A stretch of 64,000 bases of DNA. Source: Octopus vulgaris (taxonomy: Eukaryota). The stretch covers positions 10,044,001-10,108,000 of the forward strand of contig OX597834.1 in NCBI GenBank assembly GCA_951406725.2, read 5' to 3'. Both the position numbers and the translations under genes were made by a program. Under the pieces are notes generated by a model. It did no database searches. It saw nothing but the letters and a program-made list of their open reading frames with translations, and had not been told where the DNA came from. This document shows positions 4,096 through 63,446 of this stretch, piece after piece (the stretch's first letter is position 1; each line of letters starts with the position of its first letter).

Positions 4096-4826
4096 GTCAA
4101 GACAGGCACATACTCTAATGTTGTTGATTGGTTGTTGTTTTGTGTTTGCTGTTGTTTTGCTGTTTTTTCGTGGGGGGGGGGGTCCGAGTTGGCAAATAAA
4201 AGGAACATAAATATAAGAAAACTTCGGCCATGAAGCAGTGGAAGAAAACACAAAAACACGCTCGCACACATGTACATATATATATACATACCTAAGTACA
4301 CACTCGCGAGTACACACACACTCATCCTCTCTTTCTTTCTCTCTGTTTCTCTCTCTCTCTCACACACACACACGCACGCACACGCTGATTTACACACACA
4401 CTCGAAATACTTATGCCAACCAAATTCAGTCGGAGGGCAATGGCCGGCCGAGAGCCATAATCGAAACTTCTCTAACCAGAAGCAAGATAGAACTGAGCCT
4501 GAAACCGCATGGTTGCAAAGCAGGAATTCTTTACCACAAAGACTTAACGGCGTCGATGTGGGTCACTCTTTGATTAACTTCGCCCCAGCATACACAAATA
4601 TCTATTTGTTATGTAACAGTTTAACCATAATGAAGATTCAACAATATAGCCGATGATCAATATCTTTCCTGTCATTTTCACCTTACACATGTTTCTAACA
4701 TCGAGCACTATGTTAGCCAAGGCATCCTTCAGTTGTTTCTCCCTTCTTTATCTCCCAAATACCTTCCGTTCTTTAAACGATAAGCTGCTATTTGAGCAGA
4801 GACCGAATGTTATTTCTAGCAGGCCA

Positions 4827-5242
4827 AAGGCGGTGAGCTGGCAGAATCGTTAGCACGCCGGGCGAAATGTTTAGCGGTATTTCGTCCGCCGCTACGTTCG
4901 GAGTTCAAGTTCCGACCAGGTTGACCCTGACTTTCATCTTTTCCGGGTCGAATAAGTACCAGTTACGCACCGGGGTCAATATAAACGACTTAATCCGTTT
5001 GTCTGTCCTTGTTTGTCCTCTCTGTGTTTAGCCCCTTGTGGGTAGTAAAGAAATAGGTATTTCGTCTGCCGCTACGTTCTGAGTTAAAATTCCGCCGAGG
5101 TCGACTTTGCCTTTCATACTATCGGGGTCGGTTGAATAAGTACCAGTTACGCACTGGGGTCGATATAATCGACTTAATCCGTTTGTCTGTCCTTGTGTGT
5201 CCTCTCTGTGTTTTTAGCCCCTTGTGGGTAGTAAAGAAACAT
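4827..5242 (+). mobile_element. SINE family A dimer with TSD
   Basis: Head AAGGCGGTGAGCTGGCAGAATCGTTAGC, B-box GGAGTTCAAGTTCC; second unit starts GGTATTTCGTCTGCC at 5056; 17-bp TSD TTATTTC(T/G)AGCAGGCCA at 4810-4826 and 5243-5259. Confidence 0.92.
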
Positions 5243-5465
5243 TTATTTCGAGCAGGCCAGACAAACTCATAAGATTTCTATCGAATTGCGACTCAAATGT
5301 TAAACAATACTGTTTCGTTTTTGGATTTGGTTTGCAAGATTCTTTATATGAGTTCGTGTGTTGAAGCATATTCTGTTGTGTCTTGGGAGAGTCATTTTCT
5401 TTTTGTGCTTTATAATGCAACACACTCACCGGTAAAAATTCCCAATTATTTCTTATTTTTATTTT

Positions 5466-5503
5466 CCTAAAATTTTCGTTGCGTCTTGCAACCTTTTCAA
5501 GAG
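5466..5503 (-). ncRNA. Minimal type I hammerhead ribozyme-like motif (U3-A8 core)
   Basis: Minus strand CTC-TTGAAAA-G-GTTGC-AAGAC-GCAAC-GAA-AATT-T-TAGG; core intact, one mismatch in stem I. Confidence 0.55.
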
Positions 5504-5509
5504 TCAAGA

Positions 5510-5546
5510 CTATTGAAAAGGTTGCAAGACGCAACGAGAATTTTAG
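5510..5546 (+). ncRNA. Minimal type I hammerhead ribozyme-like motif (U3-A8 core, A14G in this copy)
   Basis: CTA-TTGAAAA-G-GTTGC-AAGAC-GCAAC-GAG-AATT-T-TAG; stem I CTA/TAG, 5-bp stem II, palindromic AATT stem III. Confidence 0.5.
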
Positions 5547-7474
5547 GAAAATAAAAATAAGTGGAAATTTTACCGGTGAGTGTGTTACATTATAAGGCAC
5601 AAAAAGAAAATGACTCTACCCAGACACAACAAAACAATACTGTGTTATTTGAAAAGTATGTGGCTGCAACTTTTAACATATCGAACTACCACAATATTGT
5701 TGTTTCATGTTGTGAAAAGTACAGAAGTATTCCTTTTAGTAATTTCTATTTCTGGTGTGTCCTTAATATTTTTGTGCATCATTGTACTACGTTAAATATG
5801 CCACATGAATTATGCATTTCTTATTTAAAAAATTATCTAAACGATCCTCAAAAAAGTAAAAACAACATTCAAACAAACTTGTATGCAAATATTCAACATT
5901 CTATTGAATATTTCCCGGACTTCGACTTTGAACATTGCGATGCATGCTTGAAGTAAAGATTCTCTTATCGACTTTCATTTTATTTTCGTCCGCTGAAGAA
6001 CGTCCTGCTCAATATTATTGAATTTTATTTTCTTCCGCTCAGGGAATTTTAGATTTCTATGGGAAAACAAATCTTTAAATGATTTTTAGCGGTTCGCATT
6101 TCAATTTCTCACTATGTAAATTTGTAATTTTCTTCAGAGTGTTCGTAACAAAACGCCTCAGGGAATAAGTCAAATCCATCCAGTAAATTTTTTTTAGATC
6201 TTTTCACAAGCAAATAATTACTGATATTTTCTTCTTTATACAACACAAGAAAAAATAAATGTATAAACAATATGATAGTAGTAGTAGTAATAATAAATAA
6301 AGTGAAATAAAATAGAAACGATTGCTTCTCTTTGCCAAACGAGCATAATTTTAAAACCGCATGTATATATGCATGTGTTTACGCATACACTTACGTAAAC
6401 GCATTAATTTGAAAACACGTATGCAAATAGGGAATACACAGAAAGCGAAAAACACCCATACACAGATGCACAAATATATAAATGCACATATACATACATA
6501 CATTCATATATATATAGATATATATGAAGAGATCGAGATATAAAGCGATCGAGAATTGCACTTGGGAAATTCAATGTAAAAATAATGAAAGCAGTAATAT
6601 TTTAAGTAAATATCCACTAAAATTGGCGCAATACATCAAATACATTTTGATGCAAATATTATGTAAATAGTTTGCTAAAAATAATATTAATGTGTGAGAG
6701 TGTGTGTATGTGTGTGTGTGTATGAGCGTAAGTGTGTGTATATCTGTGTTCAACCTCATAGTGTGTTGGGGTTTTGATGTATGTACGAGTGTTTTCTTGC
6801 ATGTAAATTTTTGTTGCTTGCAAAAATTCATCTCAATTATTTGTCTATCAGTTTTTGCAACGTTCATTAAATTTAAAATCCGAACGTCCATAATGTATTA
6901 TGGATTTGCGTGAAAGACACATTTTATAGCTAATGTTTCCTTGATACTGAAATGATGTTTTATAAATCACCTCTTCTAAATATTCAGACATTGATAGAAA
7001 ACTGTTGTCGTGTGACCGCATCGAACAATACGGTGACATTTTTAATCGTAACTAGAGGCATTTACTTCTTTTTAACTAAAGTCTTCGTTAATACTCGAAC
7101 GCCATATGTATTCAAGATTTTACATCATTCGCATTATCGATTATTAACATGACGCTGCTGTAGAGAACTTTAAAGAACATCAGTTAGTGCTTCAAAAATA
7201 TGTTTGTTTCCTTCTATTACGTAATTGTTCAAGCTCCATTCCGAATGGCTATCCTTTCGGGGGAGCTCACATACGAGACATGTACTCATGTTACCTTCAT
7301 TGAACTAAACAACCGTCACAAAAAGATTGGGGCCTTCTTAATTTACAAAGCTTTTCGAGAACATAAGTTCTTCTTTAACAGTTCGATAATGTCAACAGAT
7401 TCATCTATTTTTTCAAACAAATACGATTTCAGATAAATTCTGAAAGTGTCTCCCTCCTTTTAAAATACAAAGAA

Positions 7475-7660: not shown

Positions 7661-8132
7661 TTTGAGTTTTTCATTTACTTGAACATTAAAACATTAAAAT
7701 AAATGTGAAGGTTTTGCCAAGTCATAATATTTGATTCTTCTCAAATAATTATAAACATTGGTTCTTCTTTTGCAATATTGGTATACCATAGAAAACATGG
7801 CAATATGTGGAGAAATATCTTTATATCAAGATGTTCGATTCGTAACCATATGGTTATGGTTTGTGTGTAATTGCGTGTAAAGTATTTGAATCCTCAGTTG
7901 ATGATGTCCATCGTTTAAGAGTATAAATAGGGGTACATATTCCTTTATTATATTCATTTTCTACTATAGCACAAAAATTTAAAGAAAGAAGAAATATTGC
8001 TCAGCGCATTGTCTGGCGCGCTATCCTGCCAGCTCGCCGTAACCATGACATTTATGATATTGGTTTCAAATTTTGGCCAAGGGTCAGCAAAGATTCTGCC
8101 TGCTCGCCACTTTTATAACATTAATAACATTA

Positions 8133-8278
8133 CGTTTATATATTTGTTGTGCAAGATTTTTTATGTGAAGTCGTGTGTTGAAACAGACATTGATGTATTT
8201 CGAAATGGTCATTTTGCCAGTTTAGTGCATGTGTTTTTATTGGCTAAACTGACAAAATGACCATTCCGAAATACAACA
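8133..8278. mobile_element. Fold-back element, diverged relative of family C (subfamily F)
   Basis: 35-bp inverted arms 8191-8225 / 8244-8278; 58-nt tail homologous to 5314-5373; 13-bp TSD ATTAATAACATTA at 8120-8132 and 8279-8291. Confidence 0.85.
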
Positions 8279-8453
8279 ATTAATAACATTAGAATTCTAT
8301 AATATAAAAGTGGACAAGCACCACTTGTAATATTAACGCTGAAACAAATATCTCAAAGAGATCTTTGAATTGAAAAATAAAAATACTGTAGTTGTAACAA
8401 AGAAGACTGACTCTGAGAACTCTCTCTCTCTCTCTCTCTCTAATCCAAAATAC

Positions 8454-8674
8454 ATTTCTTTATTGCCCACAAGGGGTTAAACATAGAGGGGACATACAAG
8501 GACAGACAAAGGGATTAAGTTAATTACATCGACCTCAGTGCGTAACTGGTACTTAATTTATCGACCCCGAAAGGATGAAAGGCAAAGTCGACCTAGGCGG
8601 AATTTGAACTCAGAAGGTAATGACAGACGAAATACCGCAAAGCATTTCGCCCGACGCGCTAACGTGTCTGCCAG
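8454..8674 (-). mobile_element. SINE family A, near full length
   Basis: High identity to 29859-30091 and 63241-63446. Confidence 0.92.
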
Positions 8675-10396: not shown

Positions 10397-10572
10397 GAGA
10401 GTAGTATTATTAGTAGTAGTTAGAGTAGTAGTAGTAAGAGTAGTAAACGTAGTAGTAGTAGTAGTAAGAGTAGTAAACGTAGTAGTAGTAGTAGTAAGAG
10501 TAGTAAACGTAGTAGTAGTAGTAGTAAGAGTAGTAAACGTAGTAGTAGTAGTAAAAGTAGTAGTAGTAGTAA

Positions 10573-10604
<32 letters not shown>

Positions 10605-10650
10605 AGAGTAGTAGTAGTAGTAAGAGTAGTAGTAGTAGTAGTAGTAGTAA

Positions 10651-10685
<35 letters not shown>

Positions 10686-10785
10686 AGAGTAGTAGTAGTA
10701 GTAGTAGTAAGAGTAGTAGTAGTAGTAGTAGTAAGAGTAGTAGTAGTAGTAGTAGTAGTAGTAAGAGTAGTAGTAGTAGTAGTAA

Positions 10786-10817
<32 letters not shown>

Positions 10818-11075
10818 AGAGTAGTAGTAGTAGTAGTAGTAAGAGTAGTAGTAGTAGTAGTAGTAGTAAGAGTAGTAGTAGTAGTAGCAGAAGTAGTAAG
10901 AGTAGTAGTAGTAGCAGCAGTAATAGTAGGTGGTGGTGGTGGTAAGAGGAGGACGAGGAGGTAGCCACAGCAGTAGACGGAATAGTAATAGTAGTTGTAT
11001 TTGTAGTAGTAGTGATGGTGGTAAGTGGAGGAGGTAGCCACAGTAGACGTAGTAGTAGTAGTAGTAGCAGAAGCA
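10397..11075. repeat. (TAG)n microsatellite punctuated by TAAGAG / TAAACG
   Basis: Direct reading; a 36-bp sub-period at ~10430-10545. Confidence 0.95.
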
Positions 11076-11608: not shown

Positions 11609-11980
11609 TAATGGGGAATAGGCACATGACAGCGACCACAGTGTTCAACTGGTGCTAAACCTCATTGAATCCGAAATGATGTAAGGCAGTGTCGATCTCG
11701 ACAGAATTTGAACTCACACCGGAGACAGTAATAGAAATGCCACCATACATTTTGTCCAACGCTCTAAAGATTTTGCCATTTCACCAACCTTAAAGTAATA
11801 ATAATGATAATAATAATAATAAGTGGGGTTTTTCAATTTGGCAAAAGGTCAGAAATTTCGGGGGAGGCGATAAACTGATTACATTGATCCAGGCGGAATT
11901 TGTACTGGGAACGTAAAGACGGACGAGATCTCACAGAGCATTTTGTCCGGCATACTAATGATTCTGCCAACTCCTCGCCA
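11142..11980 (-). mobile_element. Tandem array of four family A SINE units separated by (AAT)n
   Basis: ACA(T/G)CGACC(C/A)CAGTGTTCAACTGG recurs at 11197, 11413 and 11629 (216-bp period); a fourth, diverged unit lies at ~11828-11980. Confidence 0.9.
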
Positions 11981-12990
11981 TACTAGTAGTAGTACTAGTG
12001 GTAGTAGTAGTAGTAGTAATAGGTGGCGTGGTAGTGGTAAGAGGAGGAGGAGGTAGCCACATCAGCAGCAGACATAGTAGTAGTAGTAATATTTGTAGTA
12101 GTAGTAGTAGTGGTAAGTGGAGGAGGAGGTAGTCACAGCAGTAGTTGTAATAGGTGGTGGTAGTGGTAAGAAGCGGAGGAGGAGGAAGTAGCCACTGCAG
12201 CAGCAGACATAGTAGTAGTAGTAGTAGTAGCAGCATTTGTATAAGTAGTGGAGGTGGTGGTAGTGGTGATAGGAGGAGGAGGTAGCAGCAGCAGTTGTTG
12301 TAGTAGTAGTAGTAGTGGTAAGTGGAGGAGGAGGTAGTCACAGCAGTAGTTGTAATAGGTGGTGGTAGTGGTAAGAAGCGGAGGAGGAGGAAGTAGCCAC
12401 TGCAGCAGCAGACATAGTAGTAGTAGTAGTAGCAGCATTTGTATAAGTAGTGGAGGTGGTGGTAGTGGTGATAGGAGGAGGAGGTAGCAGCAGCAGTTGT
12501 TGTAGTAGTAGTAGTAGTGGTAGTAGTAGTAGTAGTAGTAGCAGCATTTGTATAAGTAGTGGAGGTGGTGGTAGTGGTGATAGGAGGAGGAGGTAGCAGC
12601 AGCAGTTGTTGTAGTAGTAGTAGTAGTGGTAGTAGTAGTAGTAGTAGTAGCAGCATTTGTATAAGTAGTGGAGGTGGTGGTAGTGGTGATAGGAGGAGGA
12701 GGTAGCAGCAGCAGTTGTTGTAGTAGTAGTAGTAGTGGTAGTAGTAGTAGTAGTAGTAGCAGCATTTGTATAAGTAGTGGAGGTGGTGGTAGTGGTGATA
12801 GGAGGAGGAGGTAGCAGCAGCAGTTGTTGTAGTAGTAGTAGTAGTGGTAGTAGTAGTAGTAGTAGTAGAAGCATTTGTATAAGTAGTGGAGGTGGTGGTA
12901 GTGGTGATAGGAGGAGGAGGTAGCAGCAGCAGTTGTAGTAGTAGTAGTAGTGGTAGTAGTAGTAGTAGTAGTAGTAGTAGAAGCAGCAGT
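11981..12990. repeat. Higher-order minisatellite built from TAG/TGG/GAG/CAG triplets (109-bp unit, about 5 copies)
   Basis: Marker GCATTTGTATAAG at 12233, 12435, 12544, 12653, 12762 and 12871. Confidence 0.92.
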
Positions 12991-13521
12991 AATCTTAATA
13001 TACCCTAGATGCACACAGCTGCACCTGGAGTGCAGTGAGCTCACATAACGAAACTATACTAAAACGAATAAAACAACAACGAAATACATATATATATAAG
13101 TCATCAACTATTTAAAATTTATCTTTAACACCTCTAAACCACTCCAATATGTCGCACATACGATAGATTAATACGAAATCCCTTTCAGGGAATTATCCGC
13201 TCAAGTATTTGTCCGTGCGTTTCTCCCTGTATTATAAATCATTACATGTCTTCATTCCTTTTTCCTTTTCTTTTTTTTTCCCGCCTTCAATAGTCTCTTG
13301 AAGGAGATGTTGAAGTTTACAAGTGTTCAGAAAATTATTATTTATAGATTGTGGGAGAATCACTCTCCTACGACTATCTACATTATTTTAAAATGTTTAA
13401 AGCTCAACACTTGAAACAAGTAAATTCCAGTAAATGTTTCTGAAATTTTCTCTGGAGAGTAAATCGATCAACACACGCACACATACACAGCCACCACTCG
13501 CACGTCCAATTACACGATTTA

Positions 13522-23389: not shown

Positions 23390-23529
23390 TGTTGTATCTG
23401 GAGAGAGTCATTTTCTTTTTGAGCTTTATAAGGCACAAAAAGAAAATTACTCTCCCCTGACACAATAGAATATGCTTCAACACACGAACTCATATAAAGA
23501 ATCTTGCAAACCAAATCCCAAAGCGAAAT
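23390..23529. mobile_element. Fold-back element family C, short copy
   Basis: Palindrome centred on TTATAA (23426-23431); tail ...CCAAATCCCAAAGCGAAAT; flanked by (TA)n. Confidence 0.85.
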
Positions 23530-23631: not shown

Positions 23632-23744
23632 AAGTAAGCAACAGGATATCAAGTAGCAATGCAGTACGACCGTTTCAAGCGGCTCCATTTAATTGAAAAA
23701 TTCATATGTATTTATATATACATATGAATAAATATATATATATA

Positions 23745-23894
23745 TTCTTTCTTTTATTCTTTTACTTGTTTCAGTCATTTTGACTGCGGCCATGCTGGAG
23801 CACCGCCTTTAGTCGAGCAAATCGACCCCGGGACTTATTCTTTGGAAGCCCAGTACTTATTCTATCGGTCTCTTTTGCCGAACCGCTAAGTGAC

Positions 23895-23896
<2 letters not shown>
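23745..23896 (-). mobile_element. SINE family B 3' portion
   Basis: TTGTTTCAGTCATTTTGACTGCGGCCATGCTGGAGCACCGCC...GCCGAACCGCTAAGTGACGG. Confidence 0.9.
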
Positions 23897-23935
<39 letters not shown>

Positions 23936-26780: not shown

Positions 26781-28055
26781 CATAGCAAGTGCTAGATACG
26801 TCATTACTTCTAGCTTCATGATGTAACGTGTGCGTGTATTTATTTATTTATTTATTTATTTATGTATTTATTTTGCCTCTCCATCTTAAAATGGTTGTGC
26901 TGCTTCAAACGCTGTAGTCTACGACAATTGTATCGAGAAACCATGTAATGGCATTAAGATGCCCCACCTACGAATTCCCTATCATGGGTGTTGTCTCTGA
27001 TGAAGTGCCAGTTATGTAGAAATCATGAGATACAACAATGTTATCTGCTGCTGCTAACGAAATTTCGATCGCTCATATGATGTATGCTTTTGGGGTGCAT
27101 AATCATACGAACGATTACCGCAGTTTGTAGTGTTTGAAGCTGAAAAAAAACAAGATTCAAGCTTCATCTGTCGCTAGTAGTTAATATATAGTTCTTTTAA
27201 ATACATATATTTTGTGGTTAAAAGGTACCAAATTGAAGTATTCAATATATGTCTGATGAAGAATTTTACAAGAACGTTCAACAATCTATCGATTTGTACG
27301 TCTACCTAACCCTATGTTTACATGTATATACCTATCTGTCTATGTGTATATCTATCTTTCTATCTATTTATCTATCTGTCTATCTATATCTATATATCTA
27401 TATATCTGTCTATCTATATATCTATCTATCTGTCTGTCTCTCTGTATTTCTATCTATTTGTCTATCTACCTGTCTGTCTGCATATGTAGGTAGGTAGGTA
27501 CGTACGTACGCACGTACGTGTATGCGTACAAACATACTGATATTCATATATACATGCATATATATACACACATACACATGAATGCATACACATCATTCCT
27601 ATTGCCTGAGAGTCTAAGTTTCACCTGAGGGCTTATTGAACCATCGAATGAAACAAATTCCATTCAACATGAATTTAATAATAAGCCTGACTCTATCTTC
27701 CTTTTTGGTCTCTACCCCAAGCAGACAGCAAATTAAATTTTCGAATTTTCTTCTTCCTGTTCTTCTTATTATTATCATCATCATCATCATTCTTCTTCTT
27801 CTTCTTCATCATAGCTTTTATTTGCAGATCATGCTTTTATCGAGGCTTCCTATACTATAACATTTCCTATTTCTGACAAAACCTTCTCTGTGTACATACG
27901 AGAATTACAATTCAAATGATAAGCTTCGATATAAGTTTTTACACGTTGCAAAGTAACCTGGAAAAAATTTCTGCTATTTCAGTAATCTTTAACTACACGC
28001 TTGTACCTCTGATTGACAGAACGTGTATTGCAACCGAGTCTCTTTTACTCTCTTT

Positions 28056-28447
28056 TTTCTCTCTTTTACTTGTTTCAGTCATTCGACTGTGGCCATGCTG
28101 CAGCAGCGCCTTTAGTCGAGCATATCCACCCCAGGACTTATTCTTCGTAAGCCTAGTACTTATTCTATCGGTGTCTTTTGCCGAACCGCTAAGTGACGGG
28201 GACATAAACACACCAGCATCGTTTGTCAAGCGATATTGGTGGGACAAACTCAAACACACATATACATATGCATGTACATATATACGACGGGCTTCTTTCA
28301 GTTTCCGTCTACCAATTCCACTCACAAGGTTTTGGTCGGCCCGAGGCTATAGTAGAAGACACTTGCCCAAGGTGCCAAGCAGTGGGACTGAACCCGGAAC
28401 CATGTGATTGGTAAGCAAGCTACTTAACAGACAGCCACTCCTGCGCC
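28056..28447 (-). mobile_element. SINE family B (CORE-like, tRNA-derived), full length
   Basis: Minus strand GGCGCAGGAGTGGCTGT...GGTTCCGGGTTCAGTCCC...CACCTTGGGCAAGTGTCTTCTAC, internal microsatellite, tail GCATGGCCACAGTCGAATGACTGAAAC. Confidence 0.92.
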
Positions 28448-28510
28448 AATGGGTCTATGAATATTTTATATATACATTGGTGGGTATAAAATCTCTTTAG
28501 TATTTATTAT

Positions 28511-29858: not shown

Positions 29859-30091
29859 TATTTCTTTACTACCCACAAGGGGCTTAACATAGAGGGGACA
29901 AGCAAGGATAGACATAGGTATTAAGTCGATTACATCGACCCCAGTGCGTAACTGGTACTTAATTTATCGACCCCGAAAGGATGAAAGGCAAAGTCAACCT
30001 CGGTGGAATTTGAACTCACAACGTAACGACAGACGAAATACGGCTACGCATTTCGCCCATCGTGCTAACGTTTCTGCCAGCTCGCCGCCTT
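29859..30091 (-). mobile_element. SINE family A, full-length monomer
   Basis: Complete head, body and tail; flanking TATTTCTATACC is duplicated on both sides. Confidence 0.93.
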
Positions 30092-31480
30092 CTATCTATA
30101 TTTCTATACCCCTCTCACGTACGAGCATTCACGCACTCCTGTGAATATTATGAGTGCTCGAGGTGGTTGTAAGAGAGAAAAAAAAGAGTAACGTAATACC
30201 TAAAACTGATACAAGAACACGAATTTTATGAGGTGTTTAGTTCTTTTAATTAGCCCTTGTACTCCAATGTTATAAAATAAATTAAACTAAATATCACAAA
30301 GCATTTTCTCCTTTGCTTTATCTATTTCAGCAACTACCATCCTTTTTGAAGAAAAATTATATAAAGTGGATAAATCATTATATCCAGCTTGCCAGATACC
30401 AAATATGAAAGATGAATTCATGTTTCCAGTTTTATCAGCTATATCATATTACCTTCGCATGCAGTTTAGGCGTAAATGATTTTGCGTAAAAGAAAGTAAT
30501 ACTTGAATTTTGCATTACATTACAGCTTTTTGACCTTGTGTAATGATAAAATGCAAATTTCTGAATTAGTTTAAAACCGACAAATTCACTGCATTTTGTT
30601 TATGCAGTTTTATATCAATTTTGAAGGGATGAATATAGATATGCAAATTTTCTATTACGTTTGAAGAATTCTATACATATTTTAACGAAGCGAAGTAATT
30701 ACAAAAATCAAAATAAAGCCATTATATTCGGCTTTCATCATCAATAAGGAACCCTTATACTATGATTACCCGTCACATGGTAAAATCGTTTTTGATACGT
30801 TATGTCATTATTCCATGCATGAAAATTAAGTGTAAGATATTTACTGTAGGTTAAATATACCGTAGTAGTGTACCCTTGCCGTATATAATGATATCAAATA
30901 TGTTTATCTTCCTTGAATGTTTTGAAAATTAAAATAAATGTAGTTAACAAAATAAAAATTTATCTTTTAAATGTAATGAAATTTTCATTGAAAAATGTTG
31001 CCTTTAAATATCAACAAACTCATAGAAAATTCTGATGGTTGCAAGAAAATATTTCATGACAGTATTTAGAAAGCAGGGTCCATTCTGGTGCTTTCTTTTT
31101 TTTCTTTTTGGTATTTTGTATTTCTTTTGTGATATGATTTTTATAAAACTTTTGTTTTCAAAAAGTTTTCCTTAGTTACGTTAATTCTCAGAGTACAAAC
31201 CTTAAATTATTTTTAATCCCTGTTTTACTATGCATTTTAAATGCAGATGTATGACTCGATAAAGGAGGGAACGGAGCAGCTATATTCAAGATGAGCGAAA
31301 GACTCCTCCGTCATTTGTTAATGGCTTTTGGAAATAATGAAATTGGTGCTTGTTTAAAGTAAAAGGAAGCTTGATATCATTTGGTGCTATATATGATTCA
31401 ATGATTACTTCAAATCGTTTCCTATTACCAATCGGCATTCCTGTTGAAGGTAGATCTTAATCAAAACAGATATCTTCTAT

Positions 31481-31648
31481 AGGCGTAGGAATGGCTGTGT
31501 GGTAAGTTGATTCCTTACGAACCACATGGTTCCGGGTTCAGTCCCACTGAGTGGCACCTTGGGCAAATGACTTCTGCTATAGCCTCGAGCCAACCAAAGC
31601 CATGTGAGTGGATTTGGCAGACGGAAACTGAAAAAGCCCGTCGTATAC

Positions 31649-31694
<46 letters not shown>

Positions 31695-31915
31695 GTGTGT
31701 ATATGTTTGTGTGTCTGTGTTTGTCACCCCAGCATCGCTTGAAACCGATGCTGGTGTGTTTACGACCCCGTAACCTACCGGTTCTGCAAAAGAGTCTGGT
31801 AGAATAAGTACTTGGCTTACAAAGAATAAGTCCTGGAATCGACTTGCTCGACTAAAGGCGGTGCTCCAGCATGGTCACAGTCAAATGACTGAAAGAAATA
31901 AAATAGTAAAAGAGT
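31481..31915 (+). mobile_element. SINE family B, full length
   Basis: AGGCGTAGGAATGGCTGTGTGGTAAG head, GGTTCAGTCCC B-box-like motif, CCTTGGGCAAATG, internal (TA)n, tail GGCGGTGCTCCAGCATGGTCACAGTCAAATGACTGAAA. Confidence 0.92.
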
Positions 31916-32234
31916 ATAAGTTTCGTGTCATTTCGCTTTGTGTGATACAAAATATATCATTACACATATCAAGGTATTTTAAAGTTGTATATGTTAAAAT
32001 TCATTGTAACATAGAAATATCACATTACTCCAGGAGAAATCTGTATTCGTCAAGAATAGTTTTCTCTTCCTTTTCCTAAATTATTATAAAGATATCAGAT
32101 ATTTTGTGCTTTGTAATTTGTTGCTTAATAAAGTCGACAAAGCTGTTTGGTTTGTCCCAGCATGTACGCAACTGACTGGATAGGTAAATGAGTGAAATAT
32201 TTACGTTCGCAAAATCCCACCAGGTGCATCTCTA

Positions 32235-39646: not shown

Positions 39647-39803
39647 TAGGAGTGGCTGTATGGTAAGAAGTTTCCTTCCTAACCACATGGTTCCGGGTTC
39701 AGTCCCACTGCGTGACAATTTTAGCAGGTGTTTTCTACTACAGCATCAGGCGGACCAAAGCCTTGTGATTGGATTTGGCAGACGGAAACTGCAAGAAGCC
39801 TGC

Positions 39804-39805
<2 letters not shown>
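39647..39805 (+). mobile_element. SINE family B head
   Basis: AGGAGTGGCTGTATGGTAAG...AACCACATGGTTCCGGGTTCAGTCCCACTGCGTG...GGCAGACGGAAACTG. Confidence 0.88.
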
Positions 39806-39851
<46 letters not shown>

Positions 39852-54133: not shown

Positions 54134-54372
54134 GTGGTGTCTGGGGAGAGTCATTCTCTTTTAGTGCCTTATTATTTAACACACTCACCGGTAAAATTTC
54201 CACTTATTTCTTATTTTTATTTTCTAAAATAAGAAATAAGTGGAAATTTTACCGGTGAGAGTGTTAAATAATAAGGCACTAAAAGAGAATGTCTATCCCC
54301 AGGCACAACAGAATATGCTTCAACACACGAACTCATATAAAGAATCTTGCAAACCAAATCCCAAAACGAAAT
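54134..54372. mobile_element. Fold-back element family C
   Basis: Arms ~54134-54217 / 54226-54309 with loop 54218-54225; tail ...CCAAATCCCAAAACGAAAT; both arms share copy-specific variants. Confidence 0.88.
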
Positions 54373-55823: not shown

Positions 55824-55827
<4 letters not shown>

Positions 55828-56000
55828 GTTTTTTTTATTTGGTTTGCATGATTCTTCATATGAGTTCGTGTGTCGAAGCATATTCTGTTGTGTCTGGGGA
55901 GAATCATTTTCTTTTTGTGCCTTATAATGTAACACACTCACCGGTAAGCGGAAATTTTACCGGTGAGTGTGTTACATGATAAGGCACAAAAAGAAAATGA
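55824..56000. mobile_element. Fold-back element family C
   Basis: Arms 55904-55947 / 55957-56000; tail TTTGGTTTGCATGATTCTTCATATGAGTTCGTGTG. Confidence 0.87.
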
Positions 56001-56439
56001 GAACGTGAATATTAAAACTTAGAGTTCAAACCAGCATTTAAACCATTGTAATTTAGCGTGTTTATATAGGTGTGTAGGATCTGAATTCATGGAGTTTTAA
56101 AAGTTCACAAAGGAATGTGAATAGATTACAAGTTTAGTTGGTCAGCTAGATTACTATATATAAATATATTTCTTTCTCTCTTTTTTTTTGCAAGATAAGG
56201 GGATTGTAGCAACGTGATAGAAAGTGCTTTGCTCAAGAAAGCAACTCAACACTCGATCCACCATTTTATAATCATGAGTGCAACATCCTAAATCCTAAGA
56301 CATGCACCTCTCTCTCTCTCTTTCTCTCTCACTCAACACACACACGCACACTTTCCCCACCGCCATACACACATATATATGTATATATAGGAAAGCCAAT
56401 AAGTTTTGAAATTGCCAAGAGCTATTTCGGTAGAACTTT

Positions 56440-56700
56440 ATTGTTTTACTCTTTTACTTGTTTCAGTCATTTCACTTTGGCCATGCTGGAGCACCGCCTT
56501 AAGTCGAGCAAATCGACTTCAAGACTTATTCTTTGCAAGCGTAGTACTTATTTTATCGTACTCTTTTGCCGAACCGCTAAGTTATGGTGACGTAAACACA
56601 CCAGTATAGGTTGTCAAGCGATGTTGGGGAGACAAACACAGACACACAAACACACACACACATACACACAGACACGCACACATACACACACACACACAAA
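56440..56700 (-). mobile_element. SINE family B 3' half
   Basis: CTTTTACTTGTTTCAGTCATT...GGCCATGCTGGAGCACCGCC...GCCGAACCGCTAAGTT...(CA)n. Confidence 0.9.
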
Positions 56701-60385: not shown

Positions 60386-60429
<44 letters not shown>

Positions 60430-60600
60430 TTCCCCAAACATCACTTGAAACCGCCGCTGGTGTGTTTATGCGGTTCGGCAAATGGAACCTATAGAATAAG
60501 TACTAGTCTTACAAAGAATAAGTCCTGGGGTCAATTTGATCGACTAAAAGCGGTGCTCCAGCATGGCCGCAGTAAGTCAAATGACTGAAACAAGTAAAAA
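60112..60600 (+). mobile_element. SINE family B (5'-truncated) interrupted in its internal (TA)n
   Basis: GTCTTCTACTATTGC...GAAGCCCGTCG (TA)n [insert] (TA)n(TG)n...GCGGTGCTCCAGCATGGCCGCAG. Confidence 0.88.
60240..60387 (-). mobile_element. Family H-like fragment nested in the (TA)n of a SINE
   Basis: GAGGATAAAATCTTTT...ATCAGTAGTTAGCGTGAAAAACCT resembles the reverse complement of 35678-35735. Confidence 0.55.
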
Positions 60601-61521
60601 ACAAAAAAAGAGAAAGAGTTTGTGTGTGTGTGTGACTTTCAGCTATATATATCAGTAAATAAGGTAAACATCGGCGACAAAACTGATGAAAAAAAAAGGC
60701 GAATACCACAGGATACGCAAAGGAAATTCTTCGCAACATTTGTTCATAATCGATGTACAGTTATTCATTTCTTCCTATTAAAAGCAGAAAGGCCGTGAAA
60801 TCTTACATACTGGCCTGTAGGAAACTTGTAACTATCGACACTACTCTCACCAATTATGACATAAATCAATAACTATATACAAGAAGTTTGCAAAAGGAAA
60901 AGAATCAAAATCGCATACATTATAATGCCGATATCATGCTTAGCAACTTGTCGATTTTTGTATTGATTACTTGTGTTATAACATTGATGACGGGGTGTTT
61001 GAATTTGCCTGGGGGACATTTTCTGAAATGTGCGCATTGTTATTACGCTTTGACACCTGTCTTTTGATTAAAATGAAGTTTTATGAAAAGAACGTGCACA
61101 TATGATATGAGGAAAATAGACATTGCGAACGTAGGGTATGAAACATTACAAACGACGTCGGTGATTAAACCTTTCTCGGATATTTTGATTAAACTTTTCA
61201 TGAACGACGGTGCTGCTATTTTCTCGCATAAATAGAATTCATACATGGATAGATACACACATTTTATATACATATACACACATATATATATATATATATG
61301 TAGAAAAATACAAACTGGGACAAGAACGTAAAACATTTGGAAAACGATACAAAAAACACGGACGGGACATTCGAAGCCTTCAATCTTCAGTCAAGAACCG
61401 GATCATCCTAGCAATTTCGAAGCCGAAAGGCTGGTTTGACCAGCGGTCACGTGAGAGAAGAGAGAGAAAAGAAAGGGGGCAAAGGAAACAAAGAGAGAGA
61501 GAAAAGGAGGGACGAAGACAA

Positions 61522-63240: not shown

Positions 63241-63446
63241 AGCTAAACATAGACAGGGCAAACAAGGACAGACAAACGGATTAAGTCGATTACATCGACC
63301 CCAGTACGTAACTGGTACTTATTTAATCGACCCCGAAAGGATGAAAGGCAAAGTCAACCTCGGCGGAATTTGAACTTAGTACGTAACGGCAGACGAAATA
63401 CCATTAAGAATTTCGCCCGGCGTGCTAACGGTTCTGCCAGCTCGCC
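63241..63446 (-). mobile_element. SINE family A, near full length
   Basis: High identity to 8454-8674 and 29859-30091; abuts (TTA)n. Confidence 0.92.

Follow-up and report, generated by a model that had tools for sequence, protein, structure and literature searches.

The window, a 64,000-nucleotide stretch of Octopus vulgaris DNA (GCA_951406725.2, contig OX597834.1, positions 10,044,001 to 10,108,000), harbors five asymmetric inverted repeats, at 5314-5631, 8133-8278, 23390-23529, 54134-54372 and 55824-56000. Their self-complement scores (376, 76, 88, 265, and 149, respectively) lay far above the maxima of 200 shuffles each (42, 30, 44, 46, and 36), which bears out the original prediction of five fold-back structures at these places. 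Positions within the element are expressed as d, the distance from the end of the long arm, with window position 5314 as d1; the element is on the minus strand there. The features are as follows.

5302..5313, no strand: left target-site duplication (TSD) of 12 bp, an exact match to 5632-5643
5314..5499, minus strand: tailed arm (d1 to ~d186), corresponding to the element's 3' end; the d1 end is common to 30/30 fetched loci
5314..5373, minus strand: tail of ~58-60 nt between two putative RT start sites, placed by the outer-end clusters and TSD-defined ends
5315..5395, minus strand: codons 1-27 of the element ORF, within the pLTR and tail; L063 and L162 show the continuation into the ORF
5466..5503, minus strand: predicted minimal hammerhead-like motif, a U3-A8 core variant, with helix I imperfect in this arm
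5494..5519, no strand: arm junction at a 10-bp palindrome (d188-197), the loop being part of the tailless arm here
5500..5631, plus strand: inverted arm without the tail (d199 to d61), with an altered letter at 5538 in the hammerhead core
5632..5643, no strand: right TSD of the 5314 copy, matching 5302-5313
8120..8291, no strand: sister-family insertion with a 13-bp TSD (8120-8132/8279-8291); tailed arm 8133-8225 (d1-93), tailless arm ~8223-8278 (d114-57)
23390..23529, no strand: insertion within (TA)n, composed of a tailless arm (d61-102) and a tailed arm (d102-1)
54134..54372, no strand: subfamily-B insertion within (TA)n, the tailless arm reaching d159 and the tailed arm starting at d145
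55824..56000, no strand: insertion; tailed arm d5-122, second arm d134-79 (non-standard outer end)

Hairpin copies and the coding elements to which they belong

The clean 12- and 13-bp TSDs described earlier proved to be exact and belong to the 5314 and 8133 copies; no clean TSD was found for the 23390, 54134, and 55824 copies, all three of which lie in (TA)n. The outer end of the short arm was located ~58-61 nt inside that of the long arm in four window copies and at d79 in the 55824 copy, and the fold centres differed among the five. The shorter arm extended further upstream than the longer one in the 5314, 8133, 54134, and 55824 copies, the apparent loop of the 8133 copy being part of its tailless arm. 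The 23390 copy is a symmetric fold, compatible with either of the mechanisms discussed below (fold-back or priming from both target strands).

The five hairpins had been assigned to one family, which holds for four of them. The 8133 copy showed 80% identity to the main family over 56 bp and belongs to a sister family with copies of its own, in which 15/17 partner arms ended at d55-61. In L415 and L420, this sister family was connected collinearly to endonuclease sequence. Window 8133-8278 and L409-L411 are four unrelated loci with one arm junction (d93/d114, with a 3-letter overlap), for which the query had selected; when these four were set aside, the tailless arm reached further upstream in six sister-family loci and the tailed arm in three.

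Other repeats are also present in the window. An abundant repeat of ~230 bp, partly in tandem, occurs at 2061-2454, 4826-5250, 8448-8674, 29860-30095, and 63242-63446 and resembles a tRNA-derived SINE. Another dispersed family occupies 23743-23897, 28046-28450, 31479-31922, 39647-39851, 56434-56661, and 60387-60613, and at 10402-11070 and 11979-13000 there are strongly G-skewed tandem arrays that are related to each other, one of them with a period near 109 bp.

With window 5314-5506 as the query, 1,581 first-look candidates were obtained from the 2.8-Gb genome, and exact motifs of the element gave 4,243 and 5,368 genomic matches. It had been suggested that an ORF with the reverse transcriptase (RT) and GIY-YIG endonuclease of a Penelope-like element (PLE) be looked for beyond the hammerhead, and it was found in longer copies. 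In a natural frame of 428 aa, the C-terminal end matched PF01541 (GIY-YIG) with a score above the cut-off (E 1.7e-6), and the RT motifs DKSG, MDVxSLYPSI, and YVDD were seen by eye in long copies. Pfam RVT_1 gave no match to the frames of the element and matched two homologs, below the cut-off only, and none of 10 long loci contained an intact full ORF. The best of 32 homologs, none of which is a named reference protein, was 60% identical and is annotated in its source as an Octopus vulgaris RT-domain protein. In L063, which is almost full-length although interrupted, a partial pLTR leads directly into a coding region similar to the N-terminal part of homolog P0006 (39% over 70 aa, E 4e-12). 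Window 5395-5315 forms an open 27-codon start which continues into the ORF in L063 and L162, where the pLTR repeat precedes the ORF and contains its start. Owing to this open start and to the passage of the L063 pLTR into coding sequence, the pLTR and tail are recognized as the gene start, as in Pen2a_Av.

Since the stubs form a nested series of shortened versions of ORF-bearing copies, they are truncations of coding families, and the four window hairpins are the 5'-truncated ends of one abundant coding PLE present in thousands of copies. The proposal of minimal non-autonomous PLE insertions was therefore right as regards the Penelope-like nature and the inverted tailless pLTR; a non-autonomous derivative was rejected because the d1 end is the 3' end of copies with RT and GIY-YIG.

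The linker of the element reads CX4CxxC, and its endonuclease contains C-X4-C followed by two His residues (L045 and others), a CCHH pattern. The linker type points toward the Neptune clade, for which the available text of PMC8557442 gives a C-terminal GIY-YIG with CCHH, a full CX2-5CxxC linker, and (TA)n bias, as in the octopus element; Nematis also has the linker, in a reduced form. An Asn/Thr-rich low-complexity stretch occurs within the ORF of L063, L064, and L067, upstream of the RT motifs. It recalls the N-rich inserts of the elements in the accessible portion of PMC3846280 but sits before the RT.

By eye, the pLTR motif agreed with the minimal U3-A8 hammerhead variant in the accessible part of PMC4209133, with a 3-bp helix I. 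Helix II was present in the fold of L009 (fold z -0.57), and an Rfam scan of the window gave no match, hammerhead included. The predicted cut would fall at d156/155; as the source of 5' ends it was rejected, since too few arms stop there (10/177 at d150-159 vs. 50/177 at d190-199). The second arms of L235, L236, L240, L242, L250, and L265 end at d155-160, beside the predicted cut, and these positions account for 6/17 of the non-standard outer ends of the junction set. A role of the cut as a third start site was nevertheless not supported, a direct search having placed 3/30 true ends there and 3/30 two letters on. A stable stem-loop at the start sites was not supported, the fold of L162 being non-significant (z -1.26).

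Outer ends, inner ends and junctions of the arms

Arm ends were compiled from 114 loci anchored on inner motifs (177 arms), and the addition of 55 tail-anchored loci with removal of one duplicate gave an enlarged set of 168 loci. Sampling was by exact motif, with loci mostly from contig C1. L089, L091, L095, L168, and L169 were left out as second matches on loci already in the set, and 13 loci of the tail search and six of L378-L407 as already analysed. L107, L112, and L113 carry one insertion with identical arm ends at three places on contig C1 (21.1, 22.2, and 22.3 Mb), which is a segmental duplication; L112 and L113 were left out as duplicates of L107, with L112 still within the 114-locus counts of arm ends, TSDs, and variants.

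The outer ends fell into two clusters, with 82/177 arms ending at d1-7 and 78/177 at d50-64. Ends defined by TSDs were located at d0 to d-4 and at d56-63, and A/C-rich sequence was present at both. Among the 168 loci, 89 adjacent head-to-head pairs were identified: 70 tailed+tailless, 15 tailed+other, 4 tailed+tailed, and 0 tailless+tailless. In the 70 tailed+tailless pairs, the tailless end was 55-62 nt shorter than the tailed end. The other 79 loci had no partner arm within 60 nt (52 tailed, 26 tailless, and 1 other), so that these "single" inserts include arms with a partner more than 60 nt away. A TSD was detected in 56/80 pairs as against 4/80 shifted controls, and 24/41 exact TSDs were 12 bp long (range 9-16). 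Tailless singles had a TSD in 7/16 cases (controls 2/16), with 12-bp TSDs in L100, L119, and L123, and tailed singles in 10/29 (controls 0).

Spaced patterns searched genome-wide gave 334 tailed+inner-motif matches vs. 6 tailed+tailed loci. Host flank of 69-139 bp was mirrored in four of these six, which must therefore have arisen later, and the origin of tailed+tailed pairs from two RNAs was rejected, as 4/6 are later DNA-level mirrorings. In the palindromes with mirrored flank (L372-L375), the inverted insertion apparently gave rise to subsequent copying from arm to arm that extended into host DNA. Many variants are common to both arms of the tailed+tailed loci L374 and L376, which looks like DNA-templated copying.

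The inner ends are variable, although they are not free: 50/177 arms stopped at d190-199, at the 10-bp palindrome, and the same stop was found in single inserts. The earlier statement that each copy has a different fold point is thus correct for the centres and has to be qualified by this preferred stop. Within a pair, the two inner ends were independent for the most part: both arms stopped in the d183-222 zone more often than expected by chance (29% vs. 19%, p 0.004), and no inner-end correlation was seen in the 21 pairs outside that zone. The tailless arm reached at least 15 nt further upstream in 35/70 pairs and the tailed arm in 13, and 22 pairs ended within 15 nt of each other. In L084, L106, and L127, the two arms had no sequence in common and TSDs were present, and L071 and L054 combined a short inverted tailed arm with a tailless arm running through the ORF. 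Direct copies as long as the ORF and ending at d55-61 were also found (L038, L040, L053, and L055).

At the junctions of the 70 tailed+tailless pairs, 41 overlapped by 1-18 nt (counted without a chance control for overlaps), 5 were flush, and 24 contained filler. Arms joined at the palindrome gave 163 exact matches, and the junction polarity was typed in 50 of these loci, comprising the first 30 and 20 picked for the rarer form. Of the 35 tailed+tailless pairs typed, 21 carried the palindrome loop on the tailed side and 14 on the tailless side; had the tailed cDNA folded back, a ratio of 35:0 would be expected. Where the second arm had a non-standard outer end, the loop belonged to the complete arm in nine pairs and not in one (L243, with an internal deletion, was left out), and several non-standard outer ends met the TSD via 2-4 common letters.

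The four variants found in both arms of the 54134 copy had been considered private to it. A 24-mer with some of them gave 1,247 exact genomic matches, and of the 28 loci typed among these, most carried all four; they are the signature of a subfamily, subfamily B. A tandem array of the pLTR was observed at G000:C2:10306440-10308987, with nine same-strand subfamily-B motif matches at multiples of ~217 bp and one inverted match before them. Over 70 pairs, the arms differed from each other at 419/5,561 sites (7.5%), as compared with 8.25% between loci of one subfamily, and seven rare variants were common to both arms against ~1 expected. Both arms belonged to the same subfamily in 96/99 typed pairs and in 23/23 of a further set, which fits one RNA, one source, one activity period, or fold-back. 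Among the three discordant pairs of the 99, two were ambiguous and one (L226) was clean. L226:1379-1705 is a tailed+tailed pair in which a subfamily-A arm and a subfamily-B arm are joined at the palindrome. As the only clean case in 99, it was not accepted as proof that chimeric arms come from two RNAs.

Probable priming from both target strands and its alternatives

With a probability of about 0.75, the two arms are two separate cDNAs, one primed on each nicked target strand, that were subsequently joined. The GIY-YIG endonuclease would nick the two strands of an AT-rich target at a distance of 12 nt, and each 3' overhang would prime reverse transcription, one at the outer site (the tail end) and the other at the inner site. 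The precise second endpoint claimed earlier is real (d55-62), but this fixed inner end more likely marks where a second cDNA starts than where one stops. Each cDNA would then stop at a variable point, most often d190-199, which may correspond to the 5' end of an RNA whose transcription began in the pLTR or to a strong stop. The 3' ends of the cDNAs would be joined through microhomology (1-10 nt), at the palindrome, or with short filler, with repair filling in, and capture of one cDNA alone would yield a single tailed or tailless insert. Both cDNAs probably derive from one RNA or one RNP. The counts fit the published in vitro data on a Penelope-like protein described below.

Some observations weigh against this mechanism. 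Both arms stop in the d183-222 zone too often for wholly independent inner ends. The 15 tailed+other pairs resemble fold-back products (loop polarity 9:1), and a minority of about one pair in six, those with a non-standard outer end of the second arm, probably are true fold-back products. The one-RNA version needs strand displacement, the cDNAs overlapping by up to 140 nt, and a deletion across the middle of an initially symmetric palindrome could also make the tailless arm the longer one in some copies.

Fold-back as the rule is unlikely. The tailed cDNA would loop, copy itself, and stop ~58 nt from its start, and later central deletions would scramble the fold point. Self-priming of this kind was proposed for inverted junctions in 2013 (PMC3846280, in the portion accessible). 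The palindromes at junctions, the agreement of the arms in subfamily, the small excess of rare variants common to them, and the 9:1 polarity in pairs with a non-standard second end all speak for it. However, in half of the tailed+tailless pairs (35/70), the tailless arm holds sequence from further upstream, so the tailed arm cannot have been its template, and fold-back would require a later deletion in about half of the pairs. The 21:14 junction polarity, the non-overlapping arms with TSDs, the tailless single inserts with TSDs, and the ORF-long direct copies ending at d55-61 also argue against it. The octopus counts thus disagree with self-priming for most copies, and fold-back as a general step was not supported. 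The claim that the 54134 inversion was copied from its own template is likewise unsupported, since its private-variant evidence is lost and the short arm holds extra upstream sequence in 4/5 window copies.

Two separate RNAs (dual priming), or two insertions at one site, uncoupled within the complex, are still less probable. The combination of subfamily-A and subfamily-B arms in L226 and an arm divergence (7.5%) near that between loci (8.25%) are in favor of this possibility, and subfamilies active at different times would also yield concordant arms. A free choice of start, however, predicts tailless+tailless and tailed+tailed pairs, of which 0 and 4 were seen in 74 (p ~1e-13); a single TSD surrounds both arms, and L226 itself is tailed+tailed. 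Two RNAs held asymmetrically in a dimer would be compatible with priming at two sites. A DNA-transposon MITE, or a foldback element with terminal inverted repeats, resembles these short, high-copy, AT-rich hairpins with their nearly fixed 12-bp TSD but can be dismissed, as was held from the outset, given the asymmetric ends, the variable inner ends, the 79/168 loci without an adjacent second arm, and above all an end continuous with the RT and GIY-YIG ORF, a link that already refutes it.

Relation to known elements and significance

The hairpin layout as such is already published and is common in this genome (thousands of copies); the signal regarding mechanism is the added part. An inverted 5'-truncated pLTR with an optional tail is reported for EN+ PLEs in the accessible portions of PMC8557442, PMC3846280 (Pen2a_Av), and PMC8969392. 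As far as the first two describe them, these elements share with the octopus element the 5' truncation, inverted end copy, one-sided tail, TSD, ORF start in the pLTR and tail, palindrome at the pLTR 5' end, (TA)n targets, and minimal hammerhead (predicted here). The octopus tail is ~58 nt long in contrast to 30-40 nt in the EN+ PLEs, by the text available, and its TSD is mostly 12 bp.

For Poseidon_Ac of the green anole, the available text of PMC11167929 reports that the PLE protein nicks and extends both target strands in vitro, with a predicted dimer, and that two internal RNA start sites delimit the tail. The octopus element resembles it in two RT start sites in the ORF start, an A/C-rich start region, an AT-rich target, and an upstream hammerhead (predicted here). 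Poseidon_Ac belongs to another clade, however, and that text does not treat inverted insertions. The start site did not differ between the strands there, so strict tailed/tailless pairing has yet to be reproduced in vitro, whereas in the octopus the two sites occur in paired use. LINE-1 twin or dual priming, in the parts of PMC2837659 and 10.1101/2024.08.27.596794 available, is similar in that both nicks prime, microhomology joins the pieces, and one TSD surrounds an inverted and a direct piece. In LINE-1, chance complementarity provides the second site, and overlap between the pieces is not typical, whereas the octopus element has a fixed site (d55-62) and most pairs overlap, by up to 140 nt.

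Two-ended priming for Penelope-like elements was not found in a search of freely accessible main texts, nor is it addressed in the accessible portions of PMC13282606 and 10.64898/2026.07.22.740005. According to the text available from PMC8557442 and PMC11167929, the formation of the inverted end and tail of PLEs is unsolved; the published explanation found for it is self-priming (PMC3846280). The value of the present analysis lies in its evidence on this open question, the counts favoring both-strand priming at two coupled start sites, and priming at two sites gives predictions testable in the existing in vitro system. A more specific form, programmed twin priming, is put forward tentatively, at somewhat less than even odds: a dimeric RT-endonuclease would make the 12-nt staggered cut and copy one RNA simultaneously from two fixed sites, the trailing enzyme displacing the leading cDNA. 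If this is true, the inverted pLTR with its one-sided tail would be the normal product of a single reaction and would not need an accident of self-priming.
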